From Squatina squatina (Eukaryota): a stretch of 59,039 bases of DNA. Made by a program: the position numbers and the translations under genes. The DNA lies in NCBI GenBank assembly GCA_031763465.1, contig JARFOE010000115.1:9825473-9884511 (forward strand), given 5' to 3'. Positions 3,255-53,507 of this stretch are shown here, piece after piece; the first letter of the stretch is position 1, and the number at the start of each line of letters is the position of its first letter. The notes below the pieces were generated by a model that did no database searches, was not told where the DNA came from, and saw only the letters and a program-made list of their open reading frames with translations.

Positions 3255-4091
3255 ACTTAATAAATGATTAAAAATAGACACTGCCGTTATTTTATTGGTC
3301 TTTATTTCCCGTTTTATTAACTGAAATAACCCAATTACTTTCAGAGCATATTTCTTCATAGCTATATTTCTAACAGACAATAATGAGCAGAAAGGATGGA
3401 CTCATTATAGATCTTAGTCTACACAGGATCATTCGGTATGAGGGAAGCTCAGCACAAAAACACACAATAATGTGTTAGAACCCATGCAAATTTTTGAGCT
3501 CATTATTATTGTATTAGATTACTATTTGATTTGCTTTCAGTCTTGTTAATGGCATCTTAGTAATTTCCTTTACTGGTTGAGCCTCTGCTGCACAGCTGGA
3601 TGAATTATGGATTTTACAATTGTTTTAATTCTGTTAGTCATGCCTCCTCAAAACTATGTAATTAATTTATATTAGATGTCCGCTGTTCAATCCGATAGAG
3701 AGTTGTATTGGAACTCTTCATACACAGTGTTTTCTTTGGNNNNNNNNNNNNNNNNNNNNNNNNNNNNNNNNNNNNNNNNNNNNNNNNNNNNNNNNNNNNN
3801 NNNNNNNNNNNNNNNNNNNNNNNNNNNNNNNNNNNNNNNTTACTTTGAACACAGAAGTAAAAAACACCAATGATATGATATTTGTAATATAAAATAATGC
3901 AACTGTAGCAACCTACAGCTATAAAGAAAAGGTTATCTTACTTCGCGTAAAATACAGAAGAAAATTATCTGCCAACCAATAACAATTACATATAAACAAA
4001 AAATGCTGGAAAAACTCAGCAGGTCAGGCAATAGCAATTACATTACTGAAACACACCAAGTCAGCCATGCTGCTGAAGACGCTTCACTCAC

Positions 4092-4266
4092 CAGTTAGCC
4101 CAGAGGAGGGAGGATTACGCTGGATTTCTTCAGCTGTGTTCTCCTGCAAGATGTCCCAAAGCTGCCACTGCATCTTGGGGTTTAAGATGTAGAAGGGCTG
4201 GTTTGGATTCTTTTCTCGATACCTTTTGTAATTCTCAAAGAAATTATAGTCTGGATGATTGAACCA
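4092..4266 (-). CDS. ST6GAL1: Beta-galactoside alpha-2,6-sialyltransferase 1, internal 175-bp exon leading into sialylmotif S
   Basis: [59 protein letters not shown] with AG acceptor (4267-4268) and GT donor (4090-4091). PPSSG begins sialylmotif S. ST6GAL2 not formally excluded. Confidence 0.85.
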
Positions 4267-4962
4267 CTGGGGGGAAAAAAGTAAATGCAGAAATGTTGAG
4301 TATTGTGTTGTAGGATGGCACTTGGTTTTCTCTCTTTCATTGACAAATTTATTGTTGGATTTAAAAAAACCGAATTGTGCATTCTGAGGTACAGTCACTG
4401 AAGTCCCACCATAAGGTGAGTGTCCTTTTAAAATACAGTAGATATAAGCCCATTATAAAATTTTCATGAGTCACATTTTGATCTTCACCTAATAAGAAAT
4501 ACAAGTGACGCTTTAAACAGTCCAACATCACTACCATTTTGCAGCAATGCATTTTGCAACAACCCTTCCTGCACTCGGTTGTTTCAGGCCCCTTCTGCTT
4601 TGCATGGACTAACTCCAACCTGACTGGGTTGGGGGTATAGCAGAACGCTGCCACGACATGAGGAGCCACCTAAGCAAAGCTCATCACAGGCGAGGTGTTN
4701 NNNNNNNNNNNNNNNNNNNNNNNNNNNNNNNNNNNNNNNNNNNNNNNNNNNNNNNNNNNNNNNNNNNNNNNNNNNNNNNNNNNNNNNNNNNNNNNNNNNA
4801 ATTAGCAAGTTTTTTTAAAGCTGTCTGTGAGATTTTTTCTAAGTGTCACATTGCTCGACTTAAAAAAAAAAGACTCCCCAACTCGTCCCTTAGCACCAGA
4901 AACTGAGGGCAGTCTAATTGGGTGCCCTAAATCTCCAGTCAGATGTTTCGAGTAAAACTCAC

Positions 4963-5497
4963 CTATTTCGCTTCCCAGCCTCGATCGGAGGATAGAGCCA
5001 GCTGATGCCACGACAGCGCACGTCTTGAATGGTCCGAGTGCTTGAGTAAGATTTCTGGTTGGTATGTGCTCCCGCCAGTCAGATGTCGTGAAGGGCTCAT
5101 CTCCAAACTGAATGGACGCCACTTGGATCCTCTGTTTCAGTCCACATAACAGTTCTTTGCTGCTGAGCTTCTTTGGCTGTCTTGTTCCAGTGAAGTTCAC
5201 AGCGTACTTATTCATTGACGCATAATTGTTTTTAACAGTCCGTAGGCGGCGGTTGAGGTGGTCCGAAGAGCTGTCTTCATTCCAAATCATCCATGAATTC
5301 CATTGTTTTTTAAACGCAAGCTTTATCTTTGTGGGTTTTGCTGCTGTGTTGGAAATGATTGATGGTTCCTTCCCTTGTTGTCCCCTGGATAAATCCCTGG
5401 TAACTACAGCCGCGGGCAGAAGATCCTTTGAAGCAGTTGTTTCTTTGAACTGGATTTCTGATTTGCTAGATCCTTTTATTTTGCTGTTATTTGTCTT
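4963..5497 (-). CDS. ST6GAL1: ST6GAL1 first large coding exon (stem and start of sialylmotif L); 5' end lost in gap
   Basis: ...WNEDSSSDHLNRRLRTVKNNYASMNKYAV...ELLCGLK...PFTTSDW...LGPFKTCAVVASAGSILRSRLGSEI|G. CAVVxSAGS...LGxEI is sialylmotif L. GT donor at 4961-4962. Two small middle exons and the last exon are not visible, presumably in gaps. Confidence 0.87.
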
Positions 5498-9042: not shown

Positions 9043-9142
9043 NNNNNNNNNNNNNNNNNNNNNNNNNNNNNNNNNNNNNNNNNNNNNNNNNNNNNNNNNN
9101 NNNNNNNNNNNNNNNNNNNNNNNNNNNNNNNNNNNNNNNNNN

Positions 9143-10439
9143 AGTGTATGGGTCACAGTTCCTTGTTGCTGATCTTTCATAACAATAAGGGTCACGTTCA
9201 GGATCACAATTTCTGTCGTGTTCAGGTACATGATTATATTCTTCATTTCAATGACAGTTGGGGTCAGATGGGTCACAGCCAGCACGTGGCTGAGAATTGT
9301 GAACTGGATAACAGGCTGGATGATAATAGAGATCACAATCATGACCTTCCTTAGTTTTACCTTTGTACATGGATTGAGGCCTGCGACAGTTACGATCATA
9401 CTCGGGATCACAATCAGGGTCTTCAACAGCTTGGTCAATAGATTTCACATTTTGACGACAGTTGGGGTCACGGTATGAATCACATTCAAATTCTTTTTTA
9501 CCACCATATACAGGTCTATCAGGACTACAATAAGGGTCATATCTGGGGTCACATTCAGAGTCTGGTGCAGGCTCATCCTTAGGATGATATGCCGATTGAC
9601 AGTTGCGATCATAGTATGGGTCACAATCATATGGATTTTTATAGGCAGCCACAGTGGAGCGGCAATATGGATCCTTTGCAGTGTCACAGGCAGGGAAAGC
9701 AGTTAGGGTCTGAGTAGGGATCACATGATTGCTTTAGGTAGGCAACCAGTGCCAGACAGTGTGGATTGTCTGGATCATATGGATTACAATACTGGTTTAC
9801 TAACTGAGCATATTGTGCATAAGTGAAGGATTGCTGGTAATATCCTGACAAGGTGCGTTTAGAATATGATTCAGCGTGGCAGTAAGGATCTTTCTGGGGG
9901 TCACATGACTGTACCTGGGTTCTGCAATATGGATCTTTCTTTGGATCACAAGGGTACGTTTCTGCTCCATAGTATGGATCTTTTTTTGGATGACTAGAGT
10001 ATGCGTCTGCTCTGCAGTATGGATCCTTCTGTGGATCACAAGGGTACGTTTCTGCTCCATACGAAGCTTTCTTTGGATCACTAGAGTATGCTTCTGCTCT
10101 GCAGTATGGATCTTTCTGTGGATCACAAGGGTACACTGCTGCTCTGTAATATGGATCTTTCTTTGGATGACTAGAGTATGCTTCTGCTCTGCAGTATGGA
10201 TCTTTCTGTGGATCACAAGGGTATGTTTCGGTTCTGCAGTGTGGGTCTTTGTATGGGTCACACTGCTTCTGAGTGTAAGCTACTTGCTTCTGAAGAACAA
10301 GTGGCTGACAATCGGGATCTTTTGTTGTGTCACATTCCTCTTCACGTAGACGCTGCAGGAATGCTTGATATGACCGCTGGGACTCATCTCTGCTCTTGGC
10401 CTGAAGATATTGTAGATAAACTTTGTCCAATTCATATAT
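9143..10439 (-). CDS. and1/and2-like: Actinodin-family (And1/And2-like) protein, main repeat exon; frameshift near 9690 and in-frame TGA at 9248-9250
   Basis: AG acceptor at 10440-10441. Begins IYELDKVYLQYLQAKSRDESQRSYQAFLQRL, like the actinodin ELDRxYLxYLQxKxRxE..RSY block, followed by about 17-18 C(D/N)PxxDPxC-type motifs (CDPYKDPHC, CDPQKDPYC, CDPYSDPNC, CDPRYDPYC, CDPERDPYC). Frame 1 stops at 9684-9686; repeats continue in a shifted frame and past the TGA into the gap. Confidence 0.85.
9880..10262 (-). repeat. Coding tandem repeat: 45-bp (15-aa) unit with 90-bp higher-order periodicity
   Basis: Alternating units AETYPCDPQKDPYCR and AEAYSSHPKKDPYYx, seen in DNA as repeated gcagtatggatctttctgtggatcacaagggta. 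Confidence 0.9.
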
Positions 10440-12403
10440 CTGGAAAATGAGTAAGTAAAATGGTGGATTACAGAGGCTGCTGCAAAACTCTGGCACATTT
10501 TACACTTTCTAATTTGTATGTACTGGCAAAATAGTTCTTGCTCTTCTTTGATAAAGGGCAATTTATAATTTCCTTATTCTTCACTTTAGGCTTTTTTGTG
10601 TCACTGCTCCTCAACCAGGAGGTTCAGCAAGCCTNNNNNNNNNNNNNNNNNNNNNNNNNNNNNNNNNNNNNNNNNNNNNNNNNNNNNNNNNNNNNNNNNN
10701 NNNNNNNNNNNNNNNNNNNNNNNNNNNNNNNNNNGGCATAATGTGCTTGGATAAAATCCCTCTGCTACTTTAACAAATTCAATTAGCCTTTTAAAAGAGT
10801 AGGAGAGAAGGCAAGCTAAATCAAGAAATAATCATTGGTTGACAGCAAACTCGGTTTTAAAGTTTATGGATTGTAGCAGGGTTGGAGAACTGAGGGAGGT
10901 CTACAATTTTGAGCATGAGTTTTAGTATGATGTGATGTGATGAGTCTTAATTTCAATACAGTGTTGATACAGATGGAGCAAAGGTGTGTAGTTTGACATA
11001 TTTGCGCACTTTTATACTTATCTCAAATTTTGGGAGATCGATGCCAAATGTAGCTTCGCGCATTGCTCTCTCGTGATTATAGGAGCCGGTGTCTCTGCTC
11101 TGTAGGCCCACTGGACATCTATTTGGAAAATGGAGATTGCATGCACAGTGCTCTTGGAGCGGGGGAGGGCTAGAATTTTAACTCCCAGTTGGGAAGCCAG
11201 CAGGACACCTGCCCGGATTTTCTGTGGGAGGCTTAGCAGGTTTCAAATTGGGGGGCCTTCCAAATCAGCGAAATAAAATCACGTCACAGCGCCAATGATA
11301 TCAGTGGGCTGCGACTTTTGTATGATATGTAGGTCTCTGTCTGCTTGGTGTGGGCTATCCTCCCAAATGAGTTTCTGTTCAGTTAAAATGGCACAGGGCC
11401 AGAATGCATTGGGAATGGAGGGCAACTTCCCCTCAACATTTTAATTACCCATCTGTCCCTTTTGTGTCAGGAGGGCCGGGTTAAAAGCCAGCTTTTCGAC
11501 CTTAACCACTAACTTTGGAAATTAATTCCATTGCTCTCTGGTGCCAATTAGTATACAAAAGCAATCAAAACACGGTTTCTCAAAAACATCTCTAATTTCA
11601 AACCATATTTAGCTCAAGGGAATGATAAAAATATATGGTACGGTCATACAATTTGCTCTGGAGTGACATTTATTTAATCCACTATTCAGATTGTAAGTTA
11701 GAAAAATATTTCTCTTCAGTTTACACATATAACTGAAGGATAGAATAACCCCCTCAACATTTGAACATACTACAATATCAAATTATGCCTTCAGGCAGGT
11801 ACTTTGCAACTATACACCTTTAATGCAGTGGTTAACTAAATAGTAAATGTGAAAAATAGGCTTATGATATTCAGGGGCATTTTTATCAAAGATGTTGATT
11901 ATACTGAATAAGTATAATTTTGATGGTCACAATTTCAATAAGACTGGTTTAAACATGTAAAACATTGGGAACTACATAAAAATAGCTGATATGCAAAAGA
12001 GCATTCCTAAGAGATTGGCGCCAAGATGAGCAAGGCAAAGCTGAGGGGATGTCCAAGAATGCAATCTGGAATATAGCAGATCTTTTTCTGGGGTGACTTT
12101 ATTACATAGTATAGAATACATTTTCAACAAATAGTTCAGTATACAATATTGTACCAAAGAAGCTGACTGTTAAATCCTCTTTGTATATGGATACTCTATT
12201 ATGTTTGCAAGTCATGTAATTCTGCATGCAAGTGTACTGCCATATTTGCTAATTAAATATACATCAATCGGCTTTGAAATAGGAACAAATTGGATATTCA
12301 ACCAGATGTGGTGCAGATGTGTACCATTTAATCACCATAAATGCAAGAAGAAAATAGAAAATCTCTAATAAAATATTAAAGTGGTTAAAATATTTCCACT
12401 CAC

Positions 12404-12476
12404 CGGGTAAGAACAAAACGGTTAGAACCACAGTAGCCAGGATCAAAGAGAATATGTTCCCCTTTGTGCAGCCCAT
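12404..12476 (-). CDS. and1/and2-like: Actinodin signal-peptide exon
   Basis: MGCTKGNIFSLILATVVLTVLFLP plus phase-1 donor (G|GTGAG, GT at 12402-12403). Upstream acceptor ttttccacag at 12506-12507 implies a non-coding exon 1. The intermediate exon(s) presumably lie in the gap at 10635-10734. Confidence 0.75.
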
Positions 12477-16333: not shown

Positions 16334-16836
16334 GTAATGGATGTTAATGGCAGCAACCCATCCTTATGTTTATAAGAAAAGATATTGCTGAGTAATTCAC
16401 ATGTGTAGAAGCAACATTGACCATAGGAACATGCCCACTTACCTAAGCCTGAAGAATGTAGATTCTGATTGAAAGCCCAAGGCTCAGAGACCCCTCCCAA
16501 ATATCCGTATTATCGCTGCTGGAGTTGATACTGCTCCAAACCACGTAGGTGCGCAGCACAGAGAATTTCAGCCTCCACTAACAAGTCAACCCATCTAGCC
16601 CTTACCAAGGAGCCCTTGGCTTAGTTGACAGATTACTGAGTCTGCCACAGAGGATCAAGCTGATTCTAATTTCCCATCTCTGGGTATTTTTTTCTTCAAG
16701 CAAACTCAAGACCAAAAAAGACCCTGGTTACCTACCTTTCTATGCACCCTCACTAGTTATGAATTGATGGTACATTTTGTTGTTCTTAGAGTAGCAGCAA
16801 AAATTGACATGTGAAATCTATGCTTGTGTTTTCCAG

Positions 16837-17196
16837 TATTCCATTTGTTTGTAGTGTGTGGAGCTGAATTGTTTGCCAGACCTGATACCATCACTAACGT
16901 CACTGCAGGAGAGGAGGTCCTGTTCCCGATAGAGCACCAAGGCAAAGACGATCAGTATGATGTAACATTTAGATTGAGATATCCATTGGCCTTTATGATT
17001 TTAGCATGGAAGTCCAGTAATCCGTGGAAACTGCACATCGTACACCCACTGTATGAACACCGAGCTGAAATCCGCGGACATTTGGTGGTGCTGTACAATG
17101 TACAGATTAATGACACTGGGGAATATGAAATACAAATTAATTATGGGGCAGAACTGAAAAACCGGGACCAAAGTACTTTCAGGATGCAAGTATTTG
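16837..17196 (+). CDS. CD2/SLAM-family-like receptor A, Ig V-set exon
   Basis: 360 bp, phase 1-1, ttttccag acceptor and G|GTAAGT donor. NVTAGEEVLFP...ILAWKS...LYEHRAEI...VVLYNVQINDTGEYEIQI lacks the canonical B/F-strand cysteines, as in CD2/SLAM/CEACAM/HEPACAM N-terminal domains. Confidence 0.85.
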
Positions 17197-18254
17197 GTAA
17201 GTGTTCAATACTGGAACTTCTGCTAACTTTCAGGATTGCAGTTCCATTGTAGCATTTACAAAATTCAGTATTTTCATTGAAGCCTGAAAGGGCTCACGGT
17301 GTAAATTGTGTTTGATCACTTTTAAATAGTTTTTGTATGAAGTAAATAACTTGCTACAACCCTTGACTTAATATCAGTAATACAGAATATACTTTTTGCA
17401 TCAACTTATTATATGCAATGTACTTAACAAAAAAAACAAAAAAATTTACTTTAATCATTAATGCCCTTCTGAGTCCACTCATCCAAGCTTGTTCCTGCAG
17501 ACCAGTTTTGTAAGATTTTGCCTCTTGTGCAAACGGAGCAAATGTTGACACAGCCACCAAACATCCTTGAATAAGGGCCTATGACATGGGAAAACAAAGT
17601 TAGCATTTTTGCACCAACAACTTTTTCACATTTACGGTTAGTTGATAGTTTCCCAGTTACAACTGAGCCAAAACCTGTAACCGTGAATAATAAACTCACA
17701 TAACCCTCGGTCACATAACCATTGGGTTTACCAAGTCAGCATGCTGAAACCATACCTTGTCCTTGGCACTGAGGGTGGCATTATAGACTTATTGGCTGAG
17801 AGCAAAGCAAGTTCCTCATGGGGAGGATTAATTTAGCATTTCAGCTATCCCCATTACAAACATAGAATAGGAAAATGCTACACCATTTTCAGTCACTGTT
17901 TTTGGACACACTGGGTTATGTGTAACAGTTGTAGATAAACTAGAGACATGACATTCAGAAACATCTTGAACAAAACCATCTGCATTGCTTATGAGCTGAT
18001 TAACTGCCATTGCTGATACTTGCATTTTATAGAATATCTCATCAGAACTTGGCTAATTAAAGGAAATCGGAAAACTACTTTGCATTGTTTCATTCATTCT
18101 CTGCAGCAGAACAATTCCTTGGGCCAGAACATTATCAATATTAATGATCATACTGTATCAGAAATTTTTGATTGAGGAACATTTTAAAATAAAGAGACAG
18201 GACCGTGTATGAGGGAATGCATCAGACAATACTAAAGCTGGTCCAGTATACGTA

Positions 18255-19340
18255 ACCACGCTGGACCAGTAAACATTTAGCTACAACTTTTGTTGTATGA
18301 ATCTTTCCATCTCTTTCCAAAAAGTGCTATTTGCACATTGCCAAAGTTGATATTTTCCAATGTCATGTTTTACCGTTTGGGGCCTTCCTCACTCATTGGA
18401 ACAATATACTCGCCGGGAATTCCCTCTGGGAATCTCTCAATCAGCTGCCAGGAGTTCGGTGGAACCCACCGTTGACATGTGGAAACGGAGTTTCTGCCAA
18501 ACCTCTGCCAAAGTTACGGCTGCGGACTGGGACAAGCCCGAGGAAATTCCCGCCACAGGTGACAATCCTCGCAGTATGCTACTAAAATATTAATTGTCTT
18601 CAGCATAATGCATCAACTGGATCTGTTAACATCAGGACCTCTCTTATTGGAAGTGCAGCCTTTAAGATTAATCTGTTTAAAACACCAAACAAAAAGGATA
18701 GACTTGCATTTGTGTAGTGGTTTACCANNNNNNNNNNNNNNNNNNNNNNNNNNNNNNNNNNNNNNNNNNNNNNNNNNNNNNNNNNNNNNNNNNNNNNNNN
18801 NNNNNNNNNNNNNNNNNNNNNNNNNNNGCATAGAAGCCACACTGGACCAGTAAACATTTAGTTACAATTTTTGTTGTATGAATATTTTCCATCTCTTTCC
18901 CAAAGCCGCTGTTTGAATATTACCCGAGTTGACATTTTCCAATGTCATGTCTTATCATTTGGGTCCTTCCTCCCTCATTGGAACAACATAATTGCCAGTA
19001 ATTCCCTCTGGGAATCTCTCAATCGGCTGCTGTAACGTTACCAGGATTTCGGTGGAACCCACTGTTGACGCGTGTAAATGGTGTTTCTGCCAAAGGTACG
19101 GCTGCGGAGTGGGAGAAGCCCCGAGGAAATTCCGCCGCAGTTGACAATCCTAGCGGTATGCCTTCAAGAAATCCACTGTCTCTTGCATAATGCATCAACA
19201 GGATGCATTTGTGAACTACAAAAACAATGCATCAGTTAATATCAGGACCTCTATTCTATTGGATCTGCAGGCTTTAAGATTAATCCGTTTAAAACACAAA
19301 ACAAAAAGGATAGACTTGCATTTGTGTAGTGGTTTATCAC
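18255..19340 (+). repeat. Diverged direct duplication of about 480 bp (~18255-18727 and ~18836-19340) in an intron
   Basis: Both copies run from ctggaccagtaaacatttag to aaaaggatagacttgcatttgtgtagtggttta, with many substitutions and indels, separated by an N gap. Confidence 0.85.
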
Positions 19341-19437
19341 ATCTCTCAGAAATGTCTCTCAAGGCATCATATAAAATTAATTACTCTAAAGTGCAATAAC
19401 TATGTTACGTAGGTTAATTATCATCTGTGTATTTCAG

Positions 19438-19719
19438 AACCAGTTTCTCAACCTGTGATAGTGATTCTTGGTAACTGTGTGAGTGCACCAAATATCACTT
19501 TGAGCTGCTCTGTCACCAAAGGAACAAATGTCATAATCCACTGGGAAAAGGTGTCCTTGTCTGGTGTTATCAATGAGACATATGATGGGACAGTGCTTGT
19601 GATAGACTGTGTTACTGAAGAGGAGCAACATGCGTACAGGTGCACAGCAGAAAACCCAGTCAGTAATGCAACCAGCAACAAAGTGACTGCCGACCTACAT
19701 AACTGGACTAATCCCAATG
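19438..19719 (+). CDS. CD2/SLAM-like receptor A, Ig C2-set exon
   Basis: 282 bp, phase 1-1: [38 protein letters not shown]...IDC...[11 protein letters not shown]. The PVSxP...C...W...YxCxAxNPVS pattern is typical of this family. Confidence 0.9.
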
Positions 19720-20302
19720 GTGAGTGATTAGAAAAATGATCTAAATTACAACAGCAACTCTACTTGTAGCTTTCCTTCACAAGAATTCAGCTGAGAATGT
19801 GGAGTGATGATGTTCAAATGAATACATTCCTCTATATCCATGGCTAATACAGCTGCAAAATCTGTCAAATTCTGTAGGTGGGGGGTACAGGCAATATTCA
19901 TCTTATCGAGAGATGGAGTGCCCAACTGCTGCAGGATAATGGAGGCAAATCCACACTGTTATTGCCTGATTCACAAATTCTCCAAATCACAACTTGTACT
20001 ACTTGTTTGTGGGTGTATCTGCACACAGGACCATGTGCTCTGTGTCCATATGCTGCTCCATTCAACAGCAGGTGGAGGATAAAGGAGTTCTTGTATCCAG
20101 TCAGAGCTGACATTTCAACTCATCTCTCTTCATTGGGTGTCAAGTATTTTATTTTTCGAGCTGTCAGTCTGTCCTGTAACCACAAGTTCAAAACTACAAC
20201 TGCATTTTGGGCCAGAAATTTACACCGTTCAAAATAAAGCAAAAGGTAATTAGTGTCTCTGGGAACAGGGAGAGAATCCACTTGCCCTTATTCAGAGAAA
20301 AA

Positions 20303-20738
20303 GAAAAAAGACTTGCATTTGTATAGTGCCTTTTACGACAACCTGATGTCCCAAAGCACTTTACAGCCATTGAGGTACTTTTTGAAGTGTAGTCGCTGTT
20401 GTAATGTAGGAAATGCAGCAGCCAATTTGCGCACAGCAAGCTCCCACAAATGGCCATGTGATACCGACCAGGTAATCACTTTTAGTGATGTTGATTGAGA
20501 ATACATATTGGCGAGGGAACCAGGGATAACTCCCCTGTTCATCTTTGAAATAGTGCCATGGGATCTTTTACATCAACCTGAGTGTTTAGACGGGGCCTTG
20601 TTTTAACGTCTCATCCGAAAGACGGCACATCCAACAGTGCAGCACTGCCTCAGCACTGCACTGGAGTGTCAGCTGAGATTTTGGTGCTCAAGTCGCTGGA
20701 GCGGGACAGAACCCACACCCTTCTGATTTAAAGGCAAG
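20303..20738 (-). mobile_element. tRNA-headed Deu-domain SINE (SacSINE1/AmnSINE-like)
   Basis: Reverse complement of the Deu core (gtgccgtctttcggatgagacgttaa...aaagatcccatggcactatttc) and the tail gcactatacaaatgcaagtcttt. Confidence 0.8.
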
Positions 20739-21059
20739 AGTGGAAGAGGATAGGACCAACCATGGCCTTCCCTTCCCTCGAGTTCTTTCTGATTTCTCAC
20801 CTCAGTCTTAACAGAGACCCGCTCACTGGCCCCACCCCAAACCCCTCCCCTACAAACTAAGGTAGTTTCCCTTAACCCCTCACCTCTTCACCGTCCCCAC
20901 CCCAATTTCTACCTTGGCCCAGTTATTCCCCCTTTCTCTGACCCGGTTTGACCCGAAGCCAGCACTTGGTCTTGATTACTCATGTGTAATACAATGGGAG
21001 ATCAACCCGTGGTTTTGTTAAGAGCAAGTTGTTAATTCTTTTAGGAAGATACTTTGTGT

Positions 21060-21925
21060 ATTAATTAAATAGATGAAATGAATGGGTTTTCAAAAGGCAT
21101 TTGCTAAGTTGCCATGAAGCAAGCTTGTTAATAAAATGCAGGCAAATGGTATTAAAAGGTGGCAGTTTGGAAAACAAGTTGGTTAATGGATACAGAATGG
21201 AGTGTAGTGGTTCATGTTTTTCAGATTGGAGAGTCAGTGGGCTTGGGTACAGAGCTCAAATGTCACAAATTACAGAAACTCAAAAATAGGGAACACGGTT
21301 ACCTTTTAAAAGTGGAGGATAAGTTCATAAAGCTGTAATTTAAAAAAAGCATATGGGATCCTCAGTTTTATAAATATTTTACAGTACAAAAGGAAAGAGA
21401 TAATGCTAAACCTGCACAAATCATTGGTTAGGCCCAAGTTACAATAGTGTGCCCAGTTTGTGCTCCTTACGTTGGGAAAGATGTCACGGGCACAGAGAGG
21501 GTGCAGTGGAGATTCACTAAGATGATACCAGGGATCTGAGATTTTAATTCCAAAGAGACAAAAGAATCTGGAGCTGTTTTCTTTAGAACAAAGCAGGCTA
21601 GAAGATGATTTGACAGAAAAATTCAAAATTATGAAGGATTTTGACATTACATCTGGAATAACTATTTCCGCTCAACAGTAAGGGCATAAACTTATCACCA
21701 AAAGAGTAAAGGGAGAGGTTAGGAGAATTTTATTTTATGCGGTGGGTTTTTCGGATATGGAATGTCTCACCACAAACTGGGGGAAGCAGAATTCAGAATG
21801 GCTTTTAAAAAAGAGGATGAATATGGGAAAAACATGGAAAGGACAGGGGAATGGACTAAGTGGATAATTCTCAGAGAGCTGGCACGAGCATGATGAGCTG
21901 AATGGCCTCCTGCTGTTTCAAAACA
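21060..21925 (+). mobile_element. Degenerate CR1 LINE (RT to 3' end)
   Basis: Decayed ORF2 segments (L(H)KSLVRPKL..CAQF; ERVQWRFTKMIPG; LELFSLEQ..L..DL) and the 3' tail gctgaatggcctcc. Confidence 0.75.
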
Positions 21926-21944
21926 TTCCATAAATCTATTTCAG

Positions 21945-22044
21945 GTAAAAGAAACCATTTGATGGTCCTGCTCCTTGTGGTGTCGTTGATGGCAGTTCTG
22001 GCTTCAGCCATTGTGTATCTCTGCAAAACTCCACAGCAAAAGCG
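21945..22044 (+). CDS. CD2/SLAM-like receptor A, transmembrane exon
   Basis: tttcag acceptor, phase-1 (G)KRNHLMVLLLVVSLMAVLASAIVYLCKTPQQKR, donor CG|GTAAGT. In frame with the C2 exon. Cytoplasmic exon not confidently identified. Confidence 0.8.
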
Positions 22045-25000
22045 GTAAGTGCTGCCGTTCAAATTAACATGAAACCTCAGAAAAGTGCAAAGACACTGTC
22101 CGGTCATCTGTTACTTCATTGTACGGTGCTATTTGTAGAGAAACTGGACGCATTCATTGTAATAATGTTTATCAGTGAAACGATCGATGAGAACATTTAT
22201 CGGCTGATTAAAAGAAAACACGAAGAGACTATCTTTTAAATTACAGTTTACTGTGTTTTGAAGATACAGCATCAATAATTGTGATCAAAGATGCATTAGC
22301 ACAGTTCAGACAATGAGACACTGAGGAATCTTTGCTTTCTCCACATTGGAGTATGGACAGGTGCCATTTGTTGATTTTGGGATACTGACTGCCTTGAGAT
22401 ATATTGGACAATTATTGGCACGAAAACAACAAAAACGGATTTATGTCAGACGTCAATCTATTAACAGAGTTCATTTAAACAAGGTTCCAGACAGAGAAAA
22501 TTCAGTTATGATAGGATACATAAGTTCACACTCTAAGGATTATTTGCGCTCATCAAAGACGGTCAGCTGTAATTAAGTTAATTTAGCAGTGGGAAGGTGA
22601 AGTATAGTCAATAAGCTAAAAGCACAAAAGTAATTAACTTGTGACCAGCCATAGCTGGTAACTTTACATTGAAAATAAACTAGTACAAATTTCACAATTT
22701 TCAATAAAAACCAAGACTGCTGTTCAGGATGGGAACATGATGATAACCAGGAGTGGTGCTACTATCCAGGGTATCATTATGCCTGAGTGATGGCAAACTA
22801 CAATTCTACCAGGCCATTTTGCTCCTGCTCTTCCTCAAACACTGGGGCTATGTGGAACACAAGACCAGGCTACCACAAAATGAGCAAATGGTTGACTTTA
22901 GAGGTCAGGTTGTGCACACAAGCATATTTTTTTAAAAAGAGAACAATTTGTTTTCCTGAAGGCTGTTTGAAAATGAACAGCTTGGTGAGATACTGACTAA
23001 ATCACAGCAAAGTGGTCCCAGATTCAATATCAAACCTGTGCAGAGTTAGCCTGGCAGTAGTGAGGTAACTCGCTCGCTTCTTCATTTCCGCCTTTAGAGA
23101 TGGGAAAGAAGGTTTGATTATCACGGATTTTACCAACCTCAAAAGATGGAATGAACAGATTAAAAACTTAAATTACTTAAGATTTGGAATTTACGGAAAA
23201 ATAACTTGTATCTCAATTATTTAAAAAATCAACAGTCACATCACTTCTTTAAAATAAACAAATGCATTGCATTATAAAGTATTATTGGTATGGTTATGGG
23301 AAAATGGTTAGCAGGCCCTTGAGCCTCTGAATAAATGCCTTCTTTTTTTTCCAACTTTTCCCAAGACACATTTGCACTTCATGGTACAACACATTGCTGG
23401 AGTGGAATAGTCCCTTTTTCTGTTAGGGGTGATTCAATGAGGCTTTTTTACAAATTGAATGCAGCAAAGTTTACATCCTTCATTGGGCAAGGGCATATTA
23501 CAGATGAAGGTTATCTCGCTTTGTTTGCCAGTTTGTTCCAAAATACAAAATTGGTTGTTGATTCCATTTTAACTGTTGATACTTTCCAGGATGACCATTT
23601 TGAAGAGTGCTTGACATCCGGTGTACACCTGAAGGCAAAATGTCTAGCAACAACTGTCTGCTGTAACTAAATAGAATAAAGAATTAAATTACTATTTTAG
23701 AGGTTATGTCACAGAGACAGTTTTAATACTGAGATTGATTTTGAAGATTTTCTTTCCCTCTCTCTTTCTCTTTCTGTACCCGATTTAACATTGAATTCCC
23801 TTACTCTAATTCAGATTTCCATCTCACCCATGTGCTGTTAATTTCACAATCCTTCAATCTGATTGGTTCAGAGACACAGTTGCTTGCCCGGTTCACTCGG
23901 GTCCTAGGTGTCCTGTTTTCCTGACTGATGTTATCAGCTCGCACTTTCAGCAACTTGCTATGCAAAAACTTTAAAAACCTGAACGAGCAAGGGGAAGTCT
24001 AACTGACGGCGGACATTGTTAAATTCACTCCAAACCAGATTCTGGCCCAATGAAATCAATGTGACTATGACTTTGGGAAGTGTGATTTCACAACAGTTTC
24101 ATCACTTTGTTTTGGTTTCTCACCGTGTGAAAGAATTTTCCATGAAAACTTATTGGATTATGGTAACGTATGTTTTTTAGGTCCGACAAGTGAATCCATC
24201 AACGACCCTCGAGTGCCATTTGTTGACCATCTCCTACAATTTACTCAGTGGACCTTATTGTTCTGGCAGCTGATGACGGGCAATCCCTGCTGGAATCCAA
24301 CTGTGCAAAAATGGGAACGACACACAAGTGTTGCGTCAAATTGAACTTGTACTTCAGCGTTTGCTGCAATACACTACTGCTGTGGTATGTTAATTGCAAC
24401 AAAAGTACAAAATGCGCTTGTGACTGCTTAAAAATGTAGAATGCTTTTTGTGGGAAGTGCTTGATAATATAAATGTTCAATAATTTCAGATGAAGATTTG
24501 ATAATTCAGTTCATGCGATAGTTAACAAAATATTGTTCACAGGTGCTGAGTGAGTGAGACAACATTGCCATTTATTACAGAGATTTCCATAGGAATTACA
24601 GCACATCTGTCCCAACGGTTCTGTGTCGGTGTTTATGCTCCACACGAGGCTCCTCCCACCCTACTTCATCTCACCCTATCAACATACACTTGTATTCCTT
24701 TCTCCCTCGTGTGCTTATCTAGCTTTCCTTTAAAATCCATCTATGTTATTCGCCTCGACCACTCCATGTGTCAGCAAGTTCCACATTCTCGCCACTCTCT
24801 GAGTAGTTAACTTAAATGTGCCGAATTACCTTCATCATATAAAGCTGCCTTGTGATAGCATTTTCTCATTTCACACTGAAAATTTAAATCCAGGCATATT
24901 CTTACAAATTTGGGTCTGCCATAGATACCTTCTTGGGTTCAGTGGCATCTGTTCCTCCCATAAGCAGTCCAAGAATTCCACTTCTTATGGGAGTGGATTC

Positions 25001-26149
25001 ACGCTGCCCCATATCGACTTGTATGATAGAGTAACCCAGGGACATAACAATAACATCCCCTTGTGACCTGGATTCGGTATTCATGCCTGTTGCACATGTG
25101 CTTCTCAACCTATTCAACGGTGGGCCGAGCAAACACTTGAGTGCATTTTATATTTCAGATTATCTTCTTTCAGAAAACCCAGATTTGCAATAGGAAATAT
25201 CCATTGGAAATTAAAAAGAATCAAGGTGTGTCCTAACAGCAGTGGTGTAAATATATTCATTATTTCTGAACTCCCTCAAATTTGCCTTGATTGTCTTTGT
25301 ATAAATTAATTTTATTTGTATTTTCAGATTTGTATTTTTTTACATTGCTGGGTTACTTTTTACCATTGAAGAGATCACAGGGATGTGTGATGGCAAGTCA
25401 GAAGATACTGTTTTAAAATAATGAGTGAAATGCATATCTGCTGCTGAGGTCCAGCTGTGTTTTTATGGCCTGTCCCTTTCAGGGCTCAAAGTTGAATTGT
25501 TTTAAACAAGAAATTGTGCAGATTAGCAGGTGCTCATCAATTCCCAGCTCCACGTCCAAAATCAGCATGAAATTACTGCCATTTAAAACAAACATTTGCA
25601 TTTTGACGTCGAGACTGTAAAAGATGTGTTAGGTGCACGATTTCTTTTATTTATGTAGATGATTGAATATTTGCGACTTTTAGTTTTATGTTCATGATCT
25701 TGTATCACAACTTGAAGCTATTTCCATTTTAAATGTTGCCAAATGAAATAAAGTATTGATCACCAGTCTCCTTTTTCATCTAAATTATGTGTTTGTAAAT
25801 CATTCTCTCTCTCGGATGTCTTTTTCCTGTTGATGATTTGTTCAAAATACACGTTATTTTCCTTTGATACTCTGACTATTACATTTGATTTTGATTTGGG
25901 ATTTACAGTTAGATATTGATATAGGTTGTGACTTTTACTTTAATCTTCCTAGTTTAATAAAACTCCAAGCACCGGCTTTTTGACAGCTTAGTGTGTGGTC
26001 GCACATATCCAGCTCCACTGCTGATGTGTGTGTGTCTGTTCCCGTCAGTCTCCGAAAGGTCCAGAGGTGAAAATGCTAAACCTGCTCATAAACGTACTTG
26101 TTTTGTATTGGCAAAAATTCCTCCAATAACATTTCCAATGTAGTCCTTT

Positions 26150-26322
26150 CCATCTCTATGGGGCTGTTTGTGGGAGATTGATGTGTCCAAATTGGCTGCC
26201 GGGTTTCCTAGGTTCCAACAGTGACTCGACTTCAAAAAAAAAAAGTACTTCATTGGCTGTAAAACACTTTGGGACATCCTGAGGTCGTGAAAGGCACTAT
26301 ATAAATGCAAGTCTTTTTTTCT
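26150..26322 (+). mobile_element. 3' part of a DeuSINE
   Basis: gctgtttgtgggag...aaattggctgcc...cattggctgtaaaacactttgggacatcctgaggtcgtgaaaggcactatataaatgcaagtc, the same tail as the copies near 20303 and 31750-31890. Confidence 0.75.
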
Positions 26323-26340
26323 TGCCTTGCAGTCTGCTCA

Positions 26341-26449
26341 AAGTTCTGAAGAAGTGTCATCGACCTGAAACGTTAACTCTGTTTCTCTCTCCACGGATGC
26401 TGCCTGACCTGCTGAGTATTTCCAGCATTTTCTGTTTTTATTTCAGATT
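26341..26449 (+). mobile_element. Penelope-like terminal repeat fragment containing a minimal hammerhead-like motif
   Basis: agttCTGAAGAagtgtcatcgacctGAAACGTTaact followed by ctgtttctctctccac.gatgctgcctgacctgctgag. A related copy is at 36411-36494. Confidence 0.6.
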
Positions 26450-26646
26450 NNNNNNNNNNNNNNNNNNNNNNNNNNNNNNNNNNNNNNNNNNNNNNNNNNN
26501 NNNNNNNNNNNNNNNNNNNNNNNNNNNNNNNNNNNNNNNNNNNNNNNNNTATCATCGATAAATGCAGTGAACAGAAGTGGCCCCTGAACCGAACCCTGTC
26601 AGATATCCACTTCCAACCGCTCTGAGAAATTTCCCCTAACACCAAG

Positions 26647-27311
26647 GGGCCGAAAGTGACTCCCACCATGTTTAAAATGCGTACGGGGCGGGAGCTGGCA
26701 TTTCACTCGCCAGCGCCCACCCTGTCCTGGCCATCCCAATATTCGCTACTCCGGGGCGCCTGCAGGAGGCAGCACCCTCCCAAACCCTGGCCGCCAGTAG
26801 CGTGGCTTCAGCGCCACGCCAACGGTCTCCGAATCGCTGCATCAGCGCACAGCGCGCTGACGTCAGCAGGAGGGCCAGGCCTCCCTTAAAGGGGAGGACC
26901 GCTGGCCATCCTGAATGTGCTACCCTAGGCCACCAGGGTGGCCGGCAACCGGGCCACCAGCCTGGCACACCATTCCGAGGGGCCGCCATTTATCGGCCGA
27001 CACAGACACTCTGGCCTTTAAGGGGTCCGTTGCAGCGACAGGTTTTCCTGTCACTGCAATCGCCCCGCACTGCGGCCGCCTCCTGTGGGCGAATTTTCCC
27101 GCAAGATGCAAACGGAGCGGCAAGGGCGTCTTGATGACGTCACACGCCAACCCGCCAGGAAATTCTGCTGGGCAGGCGCAAAGGCCTCTGCGCCCCAGCT
27201 GAATTTCGGGGGAGGCGAGATGGCCATCTCCAGACGCCATCTTTTTCATAACGCCCCATTAGCTACCCTCAGAGGCGCTAATGGTACATTAAAAGAGGCC
27301 AATTTCGGCCC
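26647..27311. mobile_element. Non-autonomous PIF/Harbinger-like MITE
   Basis: TIRs GGGCCGAAA(G/T)TG at 26647 and its reverse complement caatttcggccc ending at 27311. Identical 3-bp flanks AAG at 26644-26646 and 27312-27314. GC-rich interior without transposase. Confidence 0.75.
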
Positions 27312-27319
27312 AAGTCTCT

Positions 27320-27830
27320 CCGTTAGTCCCTTCTAGCCAAGTTTTAATCCAGTTTGTCTCCCAATTTATTTTCCATAATCTTCTCCAGTAATCTCCCATG
27401 TTGTACCTTGCTGAAGGCTTTCCGAAAGTCCATGTAAACTACATCATACATTTCCCTCATCTGTTCCCTCCTCAAAGAATTCTATGAGGTTTGTCGAGCA
27501 TGATCGTCCCTTTTGAAATCCTTGCTGGCTACTTCTAACTATTTTCTCTCTCTCTGGATATGTAGTAATTTCACCCTTAATTAGAGACTCTCATTTTCCC
27601 CACCACAGATGTAAAACTAACTGGTCTGTAATTACCTGATTAACTCTGACTCGCTTTTTATAAATGGGTATTACATTGGCCAGTCTCCAGTCTCCCAGTT
27701 CACATCCACCCTCAATAGAGCCAGAAATGTAATGTCCAGGGTCTTGGCAATATTCTCCCTCAGGATCCCAGGATGTCTCCCATCGGTCCCTGGTGTTTTA
27801 TGTTTCTTCAGCCTAAATAACCTGTCTCGC
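27320..27830 (-). mobile_element. CR1 LINE reverse transcriptase fragment
   Basis: Minus strand gives DVVYMDFRKAFSKV and NYRPVSFTSVVGK-type RT motifs. Confidence 0.8.
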
Positions 27831-29853
27831 TCTCACCCTCCAGGATTCACCTCCTCTCCGATGTCCTTCTCTCGTAACTTATTAAAGACCGTTGACATTT
27901 TTTGATCTTCGTGTACAACTTCACACCGTACTCTGAGGTTGTGTATATCCACAGATCTTACAAATACAGACCTTCATCTTCCCGATCTTGTATGTTTCAG
28001 TTCCGCACCAGCTGACTGAACCTCTTGAAGCAGCTCCTGCTTTTCTGCCTTCTTAATTTGACACTGCAGTACTGGTTAATCTCACCTAAATATGCAAAAC
28101 AGCAGTGACCCAGTTCATTATAACACACTTATTCAGCACTCCTGCAACTGGGATAAGTGCGAGAGTTTGCAAAAGTAACATCCTGTCACAGTTTATTTCT
28201 TTTGTTTTATTCCAAGTGGCATTCTGTTGTAAGTACAGGGTCACTCAGGAGCAGCCTTAATTAGAAGTATTTAAATGTGCATAAACAGCACAGCAACAGC
28301 CCCAAAGGTTTCTTTGTGTGGGTATGTGTCTGTGTTTGTGCATGTTTGTATGTATGTTTATATATGTGGAGTGTGTATGTGTGCGTGTTTGTGTATGTAT
28401 GCGTGTGCATACATCGTCTCCTGCTCCCTAAATTTACCAGGTGGGATTGAATGTGAATGTTTGGGAGGTGGAGGAAATTATTGCAGCAGAAACCAAAGCA
28501 ACACTACCTCATATCGAACAGAAAACTGTATTTAATACACAAGAATGGCATTTATGCCCATTAAAACTCTTCCTGCCACATAAAAGATTACCCAACATGA
28601 TTAATCCCCTCAGGGAAAGTTATTTGCAAATAGTCCCTAATATCCAATTCTAATCAAGCAAAAGTCCATTATTTTCATCCACTTTCACATCGTCAATAGT
28701 CAACACTGACATGCAACATTTCCACCCTCCCTCAGCTCATAGGATCAGGAGTAGGCCATTCAGCCCCTCAAGCCTGCTCTGCCATTCAATGGCTGATCTC
28801 TACATCAAATCCATTTACCTGCCTTAACCCCATATCCCATGCTGCTCTTCCCTGACAAAATGGCTCCAGTAGTAAAGGAGTTAACTCATCATGTAGAGTG
28901 AAATTCCCCTTAAATAAAATGGGAGGTAACTGCTTTTCTCCACAATTGACATCACCCTCAAGAAGTCAGAAAAGACGTAGCTTTGAAAAATTCAATTTCT
29001 GGGAATACAACTTTGTTAGCTGATCATTGATGATGGAGAATGTAGCCTATTTCCATTATAAGAGGATGTATCACCCCCATCCACACAATCCCTAACCCCG
29101 CTCCCAATCAGGTACTTTTCTTGCTCCGTTTTGATGGAGTTAACTGGCTCAGCCTCAGCTATTTGCAGGGAGTTTGTTGCCCAGGGCTAATGGGTGTGGG
29201 AATCCTAGTAAATTTGTGTCAGTGAGTGAAGGGGGTGGGTGGAGGGAACACTAAGGAAACTTGAACTAGCAAGAGGGGAGAGTCTCTCAAATTCTTGGGC
29301 CAGAAAGTGGGGGGGGGATCCCTAGCAATAATCAGTAAGTTGGAGTGGGGAAGTGATGTCTTGTTCTCCATTCTATAATTCTTCTATCTCCCTCAGATGC
29401 TTCCTTTTCTCTTCCACTCTTCCCATCTGTCCTTTTGTTTAAATGCAAATTTGCAACAGGAGGTCCAACATTGAAGATATATAATATTTGTTGATTCGTT
29501 TTGTCAATCGTAGCTTCAGACTGGCTGGAAAATTATAGTGCATGACCCAGATCTTTTCCCACCTTTCATTGTGTAAACATTTGGTACTTGTTCCAATATG
29601 CATTACTTTACATTTATGTACATGAAGACCGATTGCTGAGCCCATTAAGTGCACAGTTTCTCCCCAATATTAAACTAAAATGGTCACCAGAATCAAAAAC
29701 ACAAAGCTGCCAGGTCTTCTACGAGTTGGCCTAATTTGAACTAGAATGGAATGTGATGTTGAGAAATTCATGAACCGTATGTTTGCAGAGCAAGAGAGAA
29801 AGATGCTTGTAAAGAACTAGTGAAATGAAGAGAATCTGTGGATGAAGAGAAAC

Positions 29854-31182
29854 ATGTCCAAAGTGTCTAAGTACAGCGTGAAGTCCAAACATTCAGCAGC
29901 CATTATAAAAGCCATGAGTTTTGTTCCAGGTAACATCATAATAGAATATTTTAGCACAGATTATAACCACTAATCACTGATTATAACCACCAGACACTTA
30001 TTCATTTGTCTTTTTCCAGTATTCCACCTGTTTACTGTTTGTGGAGCAGTGACACTGGCCACACCCAATACAACCACTGAAGTCACAGTAGGAGAACAGG
30101 TCCTGTTCCGTGTAAATCCCCAAGGTGGAAGTTGGCATGGAGTAACTTTTCATGCCAAAACTCCATCTACTATTATTGCAGCATGGACAATCAACAATTC
30201 AGTTGAACTATGGACTATATGAACACAGACTGTAATGGAACATGAGTGGTTCTGTGGTGTTGTATAAGGCCCAAATCAGTGACAATCGAGAATATGAACT
30301 AGAAATCAACTACTACCACGCAGGAGTGAAAGGCAATGATGTCACGTTTTTTGAACTGTGCGTGTTTGTTAAGTACTGATCAGTAGTGATAGATCATACA
30401 AACACTCATTCATTGAGTGCTCCATTAGCATTCCTGCATCAAAATAAAATCAGCTTGAAGCCTAATGTTTATCGCCAAGCCATGAAATTCATTGCACTCT
30501 GTTAAAATCAATTACTGAGCAAACATGGTTCACTTACTTCAGCTATTCACTTACTCAGTCTTTGCATTTTGCCAATGCTTTTCCTACCGCTCGTGTTTTC
30601 ATCATTATCTTTTTATAGTGCAGCCACGAAGCATTTTGCAAAGTCTTCCTTCTGTCAAGGATGGACTAGTCTGTTTTCTGAAGGAAAGTGAACATCAACA
30701 TTGTTATAAAAACATTGCTCTATCTAATAATAAGCATTAATCACCCACTGCAGTTATTGCGACATTGTTGTTATTTTAATTCACTTAAAGCAGCCTATTC
30801 AATTCACTTATAAATAAAAAGACAAAAACTGCAGATGCTGGAAATCTAAATCAAACATATTTTTAAAAACTAACGGGTTTCATGCCCATTATTCCTCTGT
30901 CTGTTTCAGAATCAGTTTCCCAGCCTGCTGTGAGAATTATCAGTGACTGTCCAACTCCAAATGTCACTCTAAGCTGCTCAATCTCTAATGGAACAAATGT
31001 CACATTTCATTGGAGAAAACAATCCCTATCTGGAGCCATTAATGGTACATACAATGGGACAGAACTAGTGATAGACCGTGGTAACAAAGAGGAACAACAT
31101 GTATACAGATGTGTAGCAGAGAACCCAGTCAGTAATGCAACTAGTGATCCAGTGAGGCTCGAACTGTGTGCTCGGAATAAAG
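29854..31182 (+). pseudogene. CD2/SLAM-like receptor B pseudogene, paralog of receptor A: putative leader 29854-29929, disrupted V exon 30020-30368, open C2 exon 30910-31182
   Basis: V exon FHLFTVCGAVTLATPNTTTEVTVGEQVLF...IIAAWT has a frameshift near 30210, an in-frame TAA at 30233-30235 and a donor changed to TTTG|TTAAGT. C2 exon ESVSQPAVRIISDCPTPNVTLSCSISNGTNVTFHWRK...YRCVAENPVSN is clearly paralogous to 19438-19719. Confidence 0.8.
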
Positions 31183-31289
31183 GTGAGAGATTAGAAAAAA
31201 AAATCTATCCTGCAAAAGCTACTCTTAATATTTATAATTTTTCTGCCATTAGATTTCAAAGAGATGACTTCCTCCTTCACTTGGAGTTT

Positions 31290-31890
31290 GTCAGCTGTAG
31301 CTCGGTGGGCAGCACTCTCGCCTCTGAGTCAGAGGTTGTGGGTTCAAGTCCCACTACAGAGACTTGAGCACAAAATCTAGGCTGACACTCATTGCAGTAC
31401 TGAAGCAGTGCTGCACTGTCAGAGGTGCCGTATTTCAAATGAGATGTTAAACTGAGACCCCATCTGCCCTCTCAAAGATTTAAAAGATCCCATGGCACTA
31501 TTTGAAGAAGAGCAGGAGAGTCCTGGCCAAAGCTGCTGCTAATTTTATTTTGGGTGCGTGGCCCCTTTAAGGGGCTATAGGCCCATTCAAGTTACCCTGC
31601 ATGTGCATTTTGTTTCCATTATAACTGCATTGAGTGGCCCACGTGGGACCTGCAGATCCCAGCTTAAAGGGAATATAGGTCCTGGCCAATATTTATCCCT
31701 CAACCTGCATCACTAATAATAGATTATCTGGTCATTATCACATTGCTGTTTGTGGGTACTTGCTGGGTGCAATTTGGCTACCACATTTTCTACAACACTG
31801 ACTAAACTTCAAAAGTACTCAATTGGCTGTAAAGTGCCTTGGGATGCCCTGAGACCATGAAAGGTGCTATATAAATGCAGGTCTTTCATT
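31290..31890 (+). mobile_element. Near full-length Deu-domain SINE with an internal insertion
   Basis: tRNA-like head (tagctcggtgg A-box, ggttcaagtcc B-box), Deu core and 3' tail ggtgctatataaatgcag. Interrupted at 31531-31678. Confidence 0.85.
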
Positions 31891-36162: not shown

Positions 36163-36868
36163 CTGTGAAAGAAGAAGTGAAAATCAAGTTTGATTAAGTT
36201 TCTTTTCAAAAATGCACAGTCTGAATGCAGACACCAACCTTGTTTTACACAATGCAAACACACACTCTCAATCATCATTGAGTATCACTGGGCAGTAACC
36301 AGGAGAAGATGATTTTCTCACTATTACAGTACTTTGACTTTCTAATCCCACTGCTAGTCACCTACCTTATAAAGACTACGTTTCTCTACCTAGATTGTTA
36401 TGATCAGCAACTGTTTTTGACGAAGGGTCATCGACCTGAAACGTTGACTCTGTTTCTCTCTCCACAGATGCTGCCTGACCTGCTGAGTATTTCCNNNNNN
36501 NNNNNNNNNNNNNNNNNNNNNNNNNNNNNNNNNNNNNNNNNNNNNNNNNNNNNNNNNNNNNNNNNNNNNNNNNNNNNNNNNNNNNNNNNNNNNNNNNNNN
36601 NNNNNNNNNNNNNNNNNNNNNNNNNNNNNNNNNNNNNNNNNNNNNNNNNNNNNNNNNNNNNNNNNNNNNNNNNNNNNNNNNNNNNNNNNNNNNNNNNNNN
36701 NNNNNNNNNNNNNNNNNNNNNNNNNNNNNNNNNNNNNNNNNNNNNNNNNNNNNNNNNNNNNNNCTAAACATATCATTGCCATAGCTCCTATTAGGTTTAT
36801 TGGAATACTGTGAGAAATTACTTGGAAACGGAAAATCAGAATTCTAAAATAGCTAATCCATTACTTAC

Positions 36869-37581
36869 TGATGACTCGCTGTCTCGAATTATGAAATCGC
36901 CATCAACTCCCCTTTCATTCAGAGCCATTTCTCCTTGGTGCCTTGTAATCTTTCCATAATACCATGGACTACCCGCAAACCTGCCAGTGGTTGCTGCTCC
37001 TATGTAGTCACATCGTGGTGGTGTTGGACCAACACTAATGACTGGTGGTGACGTCTGCACAATATTCACATAGTTCTTGGGTACCAGACCCACTTGGCCA
37101 TCAGCTTTCCTACATTTCCACCATTCTGGATCATTTTCTGGTTTCTCAACAACATCCATCACTTCACCCTTCTCGAAATTAAGCTCCTCTTCATTTGAAG
37201 AACTGAACGGGTACAAAGCCTGCACAACGTGCAGTACTTTGACATTGTGTGCGTTGATCACAACTGCTAGTCTCTCTGTTAATGAGCCCACAGGATCCAC
37301 TGTGGTGCCCTCGGGTTCCTCCATAACGTAATTTGAAGGGAACCAACCAGTTTGTCCATTATAACTACCCCTCCACCATCCATCGCTGCATTTTTCCATG
37401 ACAGTAACTTTTGTCCCTTTAACCAATGAAAGCTCATCATCTCTCTCTTCCGTGTAGTTGAATTTGACATAAGCAGGAGCATTCAAGTCATACAGACGTT
37501 CCCCATTGTCAGCATAGCCATCGGCATCTGCATTGGATGCAGTGTCTCGAATACTTGGTTTCCGTTTCACTTTTCCAATTC
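36869..37581 (-). CDS. NCK1: NCK1 middle coding exon (second and third SH3, start of SH2), 713 bp
   Basis: [10 protein letters not shown]...[16 protein letters not shown]...WFPSNYV...[21 protein letters not shown]...[10 protein letters not shown]...FIIRDSESS with canonical splice sites. Confidence 0.97.
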
Positions 37582-52956: not shown

Positions 52957-53507
52957 TTTCCAGCAGCAGAATCTCTGCCCTGCAGCAAATTTCACAGAAA
53001 AGTTAAACCTTTATATTGTTTGTTGTTACTGTACCCGTGGCAAAGCATATTCAGTTAATATTTACATGCAATTTTGTGCACCATGCCTACTGAAATATAC
53101 ACTAGCAAGTCCCCCTGGCCTATTTGTAAAAGCCTTAATTTAAGCTATGACCCATCCATGCATTTATTACAACAACAATTCATTCAACCATAGAGTATAG
53201 AATGTTTCAAAAATCATAATGCAACAAAGAACATGATTATATTAAAAGATTGATTGGTAAACCTGGTGATACAGTTAAATATAAAGATGATAAATTGTAT
53301 GTTAATGACAAAAAAATTAATGAGTTGGTTAAAAAAAGTGTTCTTGCACAGTGAGTGGTTAAAATGTGCAATTCACGGCCATAAACCATTGTTGAAGTAA
53401 AGTCCATNNNNNNNNNNNNNNNNNNNNNNNNNNNNNNNNNNNNNNNNNNNNNNNNNNNNNNNNNNNNNNNNNNNNNNNNNNNNNNNNNNNNNNNNNNNNN
53501 NNNNNNN

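Follow-up and report, generated by a model that had tools for sequence, protein, structure and literature searches.

An apparently recent, lineage-specific disruption of the single actinodin and1/2 gene found in the shark Squatina squatina

Outside the tetrapods, actinodin (And) genes are reported from every jawed vertebrate so far studied, and actinotrichia do not form properly unless they are present (PMC13120675, 2026). On the minus strand of a 59,039-nt stretch of Squatina squatina DNA, called hereafter the window, sequence comparison identified an actinodin gene, and1/2, whose reading frame breaks inside the exon that encodes its repeats. This raises the question of whether the protein has been shortened, the gene is being lost, the message is recoded, or the break is an artefact or an allele of one animal.

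The broken exon and the identity of the gene

Exon 4 lies on a contig of 1,492 nt (9143-10634) between two 100-N gaps. Read from the acceptor at 10439 (minus strand), its frame runs as ...CDPYSDPNCFPCL and ends at TGA 9686-9684, the new C-terminal end being FPCL-stop, with two novel residues. The next frame past the shift holds seven motifs or variants (CDTAKDPYC, CDPYYDRNC, CDPRYDPYC, CDSYRDPNC, CDPEYDRNC, CDLYYHPAC and CDPSDPNC), one of the seven fitting the strict pattern C[DN]PxxDPxC. Past the seventh comes CAT TGA AAT, with TGA at 9250-9248, and then NEEYNHVPEHDRNCDPERDPYCYERSATRNCDPYT until the N gap at 9142, in which two further motifs are found, one of them cut by the gap. Counts of the C(N/D)PxxDPxC motif are 7 strict and 9 relaxed upstream of the shift, and 2 strict and 8 relaxed downstream. 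The parts of the gene are the following.

12404-12476, minus strand: coding exon 1, intact, with ATG and a phase-1 GT donor at 12403
10635-10734, minus strand: N gap, which would hold exon 2 (about 48 nt) and exon 3
9684-10439, minus strand: translated part of exon 4, 251 codons with nine relaxed motifs, AG acceptor at 10441-10440
9684-9686, minus strand: premature TGA met after the frameshift, from frame translation
9143-9693, minus strand: former coding region, now out of frame, with eight relaxed motifs and the KDEPAP and GKTKEG..C..YY...CYPV blocks

A first-pass annotation, made from the letters of the window, had reported the frame-1 stop, the seven shifted motifs and the TGA at 9248-9250; all are seen in the frame translations. 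Its estimate of a product cut to about 9 motifs likewise agrees with the count before the stop.

Used as a query, the shifted segment retrieved 13 actinodins among 51 candidates, the best being lungfish actinodin1/2 (E 3e-26), and all 13 were And1/And2 or mis-named models of these. Since 30 alignment columns are also identical between it and six And1/2 proteins of bony fishes, the shifted-frame motifs are not due to chance. The upstream segment gave one match among 160 candidates, the Chiloscyllium punctatum model P0014, which is also the only shark orthologue found in the databases, where such proteins are nearly absent. A Pfam profile search returned nothing for either repeat segment. Among the further database matches (12 in total), the five inspected besides P0038 were unrelated repeat proteins.

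Exon 1 is 80% identical to P0014 aa 1-25 and encodes a hydrophobic stretch that is probably signal-peptide-like. Exon 3 was found on an unplaced contig (C803047, L003 604-453) with its AG and GT intact; it encodes an augurin-like domain (PF15187, 30 bits over a cut-off of 27) and an RSKR dibasic site, and is 75% identical to P0014. We place it, by inference, in the gap at 10635-10734. Searches of the assembly did not recover exon 2 (2 pattern matches, against 4 in the control), nor the C-terminal tail when the P0014 tail served as query. Over the about 325 upstream codons, the start codon and the three splice sites seen, there is no disabling change. The gene thus has the repeated motif, the N-terminal augurin-like region with its dibasic site and, out of frame here, the middle blocks of the And1/2 type; a continuous full-length frame is what it lacks.

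The lesions against relatives

Contigs from four runs of relatives (X1, X2, X4 and X5; four organism labels, three studies) were aligned to 9143-9900. They come from a list of 24 runs in which the best share was 0.12, with no run of this species and no RNA from it. X1 and X2 are the same at all listed sites, so that the four runs hold three distinct sequences. The relatives share 90-95% nucleotide identity with the window gene, and their contigs are in frame at both lesion sites in four of four runs. Three changes stand out.

9694-9695, minus strand: junction of a 32-nt frameshifting deletion, with CC microhomology (four of four relatives' runs)
9248-9250, minus strand: second, in-frame TGA, where relatives have GGA (Gly); plus-strand C at 9250 in four of four runs
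9838-9840, minus strand: junction of a 33-nt in-frame deletion, with 3-nt microhomology, by which one whole CDPRYDANC-type motif was lost

Between window positions 9695 and 9694 all four runs hold 30 letters, which, allowing for a 2-nt overlap, makes them 32 nt longer here than the window. Hand translation of the extra letters gives an in-frame, stop-free linker with RTKKEVHTT or a variant, similar to the Lys-rich linker that precedes the following motif in gar. The frame is broken after CDPYSDPNC, as first described, but by a 32-nt deletion and not by a single base. The GGA-to-TGA change sits 440 nt downstream of the deletion and its stop. At the third site X1, X2 and X4 carry 33 extra nt and X5 30 extra nt net; this change, upstream of the shift, was absent from the first-pass annotation. 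When changes in the same codon were combined, none of the 40 substitutions listed of 82 created a stop in the relatives.

That all relatives might share a functional stop at 9684 is thus refuted, and the alignment of orthologues places both disabling lesions on this lineage. The 32-nt deletion and the separate TGA, neither of which occurs in the relatives, are too many for a single sequencing error, as had been argued from the window alone. Because the open frame is common to the relatives and to bony fishes, the broken state is derived. Taken together, the data look like a real and recent disruption, specific to this lineage, of the one and1/2 gene that was found in the shark.

At 10460 and 10507-10509 in the intron, X1 and X4 have 9 nt and 7 nt that are missing from the window, and such length differences may point to a deletion-prone lineage.

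Upstream of the shift lies a tandem array of motifs.

9879-10262, minus strand: array of 45-nt motif monomers (TRF: 8.6 copies, 90-nt higher order), also in relatives

A second alignment of runs (10128-10634; X1, X4, X5 and X13) showed that the window array has one monomer more than X4, by record coordinates, and that one of its monomers is 3 nt shorter than that of X1, at a loose end of the X1 contig. All three upstream length differences (33 nt, 3 nt and one monomer) preserve the frame. A lineage-specific, compensatory gain of upstream repeats was considered and rejected, since the array exists in relatives and differs from X4 by one monomer. The X13 contigs, whose RNA status is a guess, stop at the exon edge (10434) with no intron cover, which suggests a spliced and1/2 transcript in that relative. 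At the other end of the exon, run X5 has over window 9143-9178 a 41-nt contig at depth 64, versus 6.9 over the exon. A tandem motif array probably follows 9143 and explains the gap at 9043-9142; P0014 has repeats like those of this proposed array.

The search for an intact paralog, suggested in the first-pass annotation, returned one locus: no second and1/2 copy was found in the incomplete assembly with the segment, P0014, P0006, the contig DNA or the motif pattern as queries. Nine of 13 motif-pattern matches fall at this locus, and the remainder are repeats or contain a stop. Weak matches at seven loci (L004-L011) and pattern matches on C1042391 and C504081 proved to be simple repeats, and a pattern match on C234 was rejected for a stop inside the motif. 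And3/4 were not found either with PF15187, P0014, P0006 and the motif pattern, a set that held no And3/4 query, so this is not evidence of absence.

Shortened, dying or miscalled

The first-pass annotation had offered shortening of the protein or loss of the gene, and both stand. We tentatively prefer the first, to which we give a little under an even chance: a truncated product of about 342 aa (251 encoded by exon 4, and 91 ahead of it on the model of P0014) with nine motifs, still secreted, the old 3' half decaying as untranslated sequence. The 32-base deletion shifts the frame and the new stop comes four codons on. Microhomology-mediated repair or slippage, acting in the germ line, would have produced the deletions, and the second stop would either have been carried along in sequence already freed from selection or mark a prior stage in that shortening. 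The shark-type array of 45-nt motifs upstream may supply motifs enough for residual function, the former 3' coding half being likely to decay untranslated. Whether the message escapes nonsense-mediated decay depends on exon 4 being the last exon.

Truncation is the best reading because the frame is uninterrupted through exon 1, exon 3 and 250 codons of exon 4, and the splice sites of exons 1 and 3 are intact. The frame-preserving upstream length changes were also counted in its favour, as was the motif number, which equals that of gar and bichir And1 (9 each) and exceeds that of carp And2 (7). P0014 lacks the KDEPAP and GKTKEG blocks at about aa 165-180; either its gene model is wrong or actinodin has been shortened in another shark lineage too, and with that caveat it was counted on the same side. 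Against truncation we counted that dN/dS is no lower upstream than downstream, that the lost half carries blocks conserved from lungfish to teleosts, that the retained part, too, has lost a whole motif and that exon 2 was not found. The chance of both disabling lesions falling this far 3', about 13% by a hand estimate, was counted against it as well.

Selection was estimated on changes assigned to this lineage when all covering runs share the other letter, which assumes that the root lies off this branch. Substitution rows counted were 40 of 82 and 40 of 60 in the two alignments, which differ in their fourth run; 9838-9900 is without rows, and the rows excluded were four that fall within the repeat (10169-10196) and one at 10372, amid paired 1-nt gaps. 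Upstream of the shift there were 5 nonsynonymous and 2 synonymous changes (dN/dS 0.64), and downstream 10 nonsynonymous changes plus the stop (11N) and 5 synonymous (0.53), so the comparison on either side of 9690, proposed at the outset, gave values that do not differ significantly. Over all 23 changes dN/dS was 0.57, different neither from 1 (p 0.16) nor from the background of 0.35, the other branches having 0.38 and 0.33. No contrast was significant (p 0.43-1.0; counts are small). The counts establish no more than a recent date for the change, and do not tell truncation and loss apart.

Early unitary pseudogenisation is a close rival of truncation, and a possible one, because dN/dS is no lower upstream than downstream. 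By this account and1/2 function has been lost, the lesions are its first scars, and the upstream part is open as little time has passed. It is favoured by the occurrence on a single lineage of three lesions and a 3-nt deletion where the relatives show no broken frame, by the absence of a second copy among the sequences assembled, by a dN/dS indistinguishable from neutral, and by the change of a motif proline on this lineage (CDPYRDPNC to CDSYRDPNC, position 9478). On the other side stand the intact start codon, splice sites, dibasic site and upstream codons; all 30 invariant columns survive downstream, so that any loss must be recent. Squalomorph sharks generally have ceratotrichia, which we also counted against a pseudogene. 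Isistius is reported to have them (PMC6101376). Experiments in zebrafish bear on both sides, as truncation there is null-like and loss of And1 and And2 together deforms all fins (PMC13120675). The literature searched gave nothing relevant on sharks lacking ceratotrichia, including the available parts of PMC11681717, PMC7614347 and PMC6101376. No link to ceratotrichia reduction, which the first-pass annotation had raised, emerged from the analysis.

It is unlikely that the lesions are unfixed in the species, whether as errors of a short-read assembly at low depth or as alleles carried by a single animal. The assembly comprises 1.15 million contigs, with 33 gaps in the window and gaps also inside RAG1, and sequencing depth was probably low. 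G-to-T is a common damage error and could account for the TGA alone, but G>T/C>A accounts for only 2 of 18 lineage-specific substitutions listed. Short-read or graph errors would not usually take the form of deletions as long as 32 and 33 nt, flanked by only 2-3 nt of microhomology and set in sequence that is not repeated. Repeat collapse does not account for the lesions, since no exact repeat of at least 8 nt overlaps any of the three, whose distances to the nearer end of the contig are 107, 551 and 696 nt. No alternative contig or copy of the deleted letters was found in the assembly, which weighs little in an incomplete genome. What probability this explanation retains falls mostly on the single-base TGA and on possible heterozygosity; an assembly artefact as the cause of the lesions is unlikely.

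Control exons showed no break: about 680 sequenced RAG1 codons, a 273-codon NCK exon, and the EamA and immunoglobulin-domain exons. The ST6GAL1 exon, the only control able to show an in-frame deletion, had 0 gaps over 178 aa against Pristiophorus. The neighbours of and1/2 in the window are these.

4090-5497, minus strand: ST6GAL1 exons, open where sequenced
51712-53010, minus strand: EamA transporter gene, presumably SLC35G2-like, open where sequenced
19413-19724 and 30867-31364, plus strand: immunoglobulin-domain exons, at least two, similar to each other, by domain match
16815-17249, plus strand: V-like exon, within 16815-31364

The immunoglobulin-domain genes of 16815-31364, which we take to be CD2/SLAM-like, suggest a tandem group of such genes between and1/2 and NCK. 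The ST6GAL1 exon is 83% identical to that of Pristiophorus and 80% to that of Heptranchias, with 71-76% for Heterodontus, Cetorhinus, Stegostoma, Scyliorhinus, Chiloscyllium and Mustelus, and 57-70% for seven rays. The ST6GAL1 tree groups the window with sharks (100/100) and leaves it out of a fork of five galeomorph taxa (88/85, not starred); the window lineage is, as far as this exon can tell, probably squalomorph. Elsewhere in the assembly, L015 (C230752:240-515) is an ND4 fragment that is open under the vertebrate mitochondrial code; it looks, we presume, bird-like and is possibly a contamination. L016 looks like a broken nuclear copy of ND5.

Programmed recoding, by which a +1 slip at UUU-C and readthrough of the UGA would yield the full-length protein, is highly improbable: at the junction TGC TTT CCC T a slip from UUU to UUC would enter the downstream frame, but the junction was made only by the lineage-specific deletion, relatives are in frame there with GGA at the second site, and two rare events would be needed together. 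As neither site is conserved in any of the four relatives' runs, this proposal of the first-pass annotation is rejected.

Comparison with known actinodins

A search of the genome with PF15187 gave two matches, exon 3 of and1/2 and an exon on C80 that we call ECRG4-like after its Pfam family. A pair of NCK followed by an augurin-domain gene on the same strand occurs twice in the genome.

36839-37657 and 9143-12476, minus strand: NCK exon and and1/2, in the window
C80, 5261926-5262306 and 5252435-5252584: second NCK, 63% identical and 9 kb upstream, and the ECRG4-like exon

This pairing, together with the PF15187 match, suggests that and1/2 is a genome-duplication paralogue of ECRG4/augurin. The actinodin family is described as without known homologue (PMC13573005), and among the matches listed in a literature search on the ECRG4/augurin link actinodin was unmentioned.

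A naturally halved or dead and1/2 would make it testable what number of repeats and which of the conserved blocks a fin fibre needs, and whether ceratotrichia can form without And1/2; if the truncation is true, it would be a natural test of the role of the lost half. The worth of the finding rests on confirmation by reads and on the fin anatomy of the species. The function of the repeats is said not to be inferable from sequence (PMC13573005), and catshark And1 is expressed in the fin fold (PMC4778128). No damaged actinodin outside tetrapods was found among the matches listed in the non-subscription literature searched, including the available parts of PMC4764851, PMC13120675, PMC13573005, PMC8423624, PMC5836032 and PMC4778128.

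Over the shifted segment, And1/2 of lungfish (P0001), coelacanth (P0005), gar (P0002), bowfin (P0004), bichir (P0007) and sturgeon (P0008) are 39-45% identical to the window gene. These proteins and P0014 have in common with it a signal-like N-terminus, the augurin-like domain with its dibasic site and the C(D/N)PxxDPxC repeats, and the bony-fish And1/2 also the KDEPAP and GKTxEG blocks, out of frame here. P0014 is 71-80% identical over exon 1, exon 3 and the start of exon 4. The window gene differs from them in a frame broken after nine motifs, in a second stop downstream and in the 45-nt array, which its relatives also have. And3 and And4 (Atlas clusters of 302 and 306 aa, scores 0.77-0.78, leads only) are close in length to the predicted truncated product, from which they differ in that the window gene carries And1/2 blocks and a far larger number of motifs. 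Zhang 2010 reportedly described the loss of actinodins in tetrapods.

The closest experimental parallel is a zebrafish CRISPR allele of and2, which, like the window gene, has lost C-terminal repeats; minus 8 of 10 repeats, it behaves as a loss-of-function allele whose transcript is strongly reduced, and no rescue comes from the short And3/4 (PMC13120675). That allele keeps 2 of 10 repeats alongside a paralogue, whereas the window allele keeps nine motifs with no other and1/2 copy found. Tetrapods have lost actinodin genes altogether (PMC4764851, PMC13120675), in contrast to the window gene, whose damage is recent and whose 5' half is open; if it is lost, the same family would be failing again.
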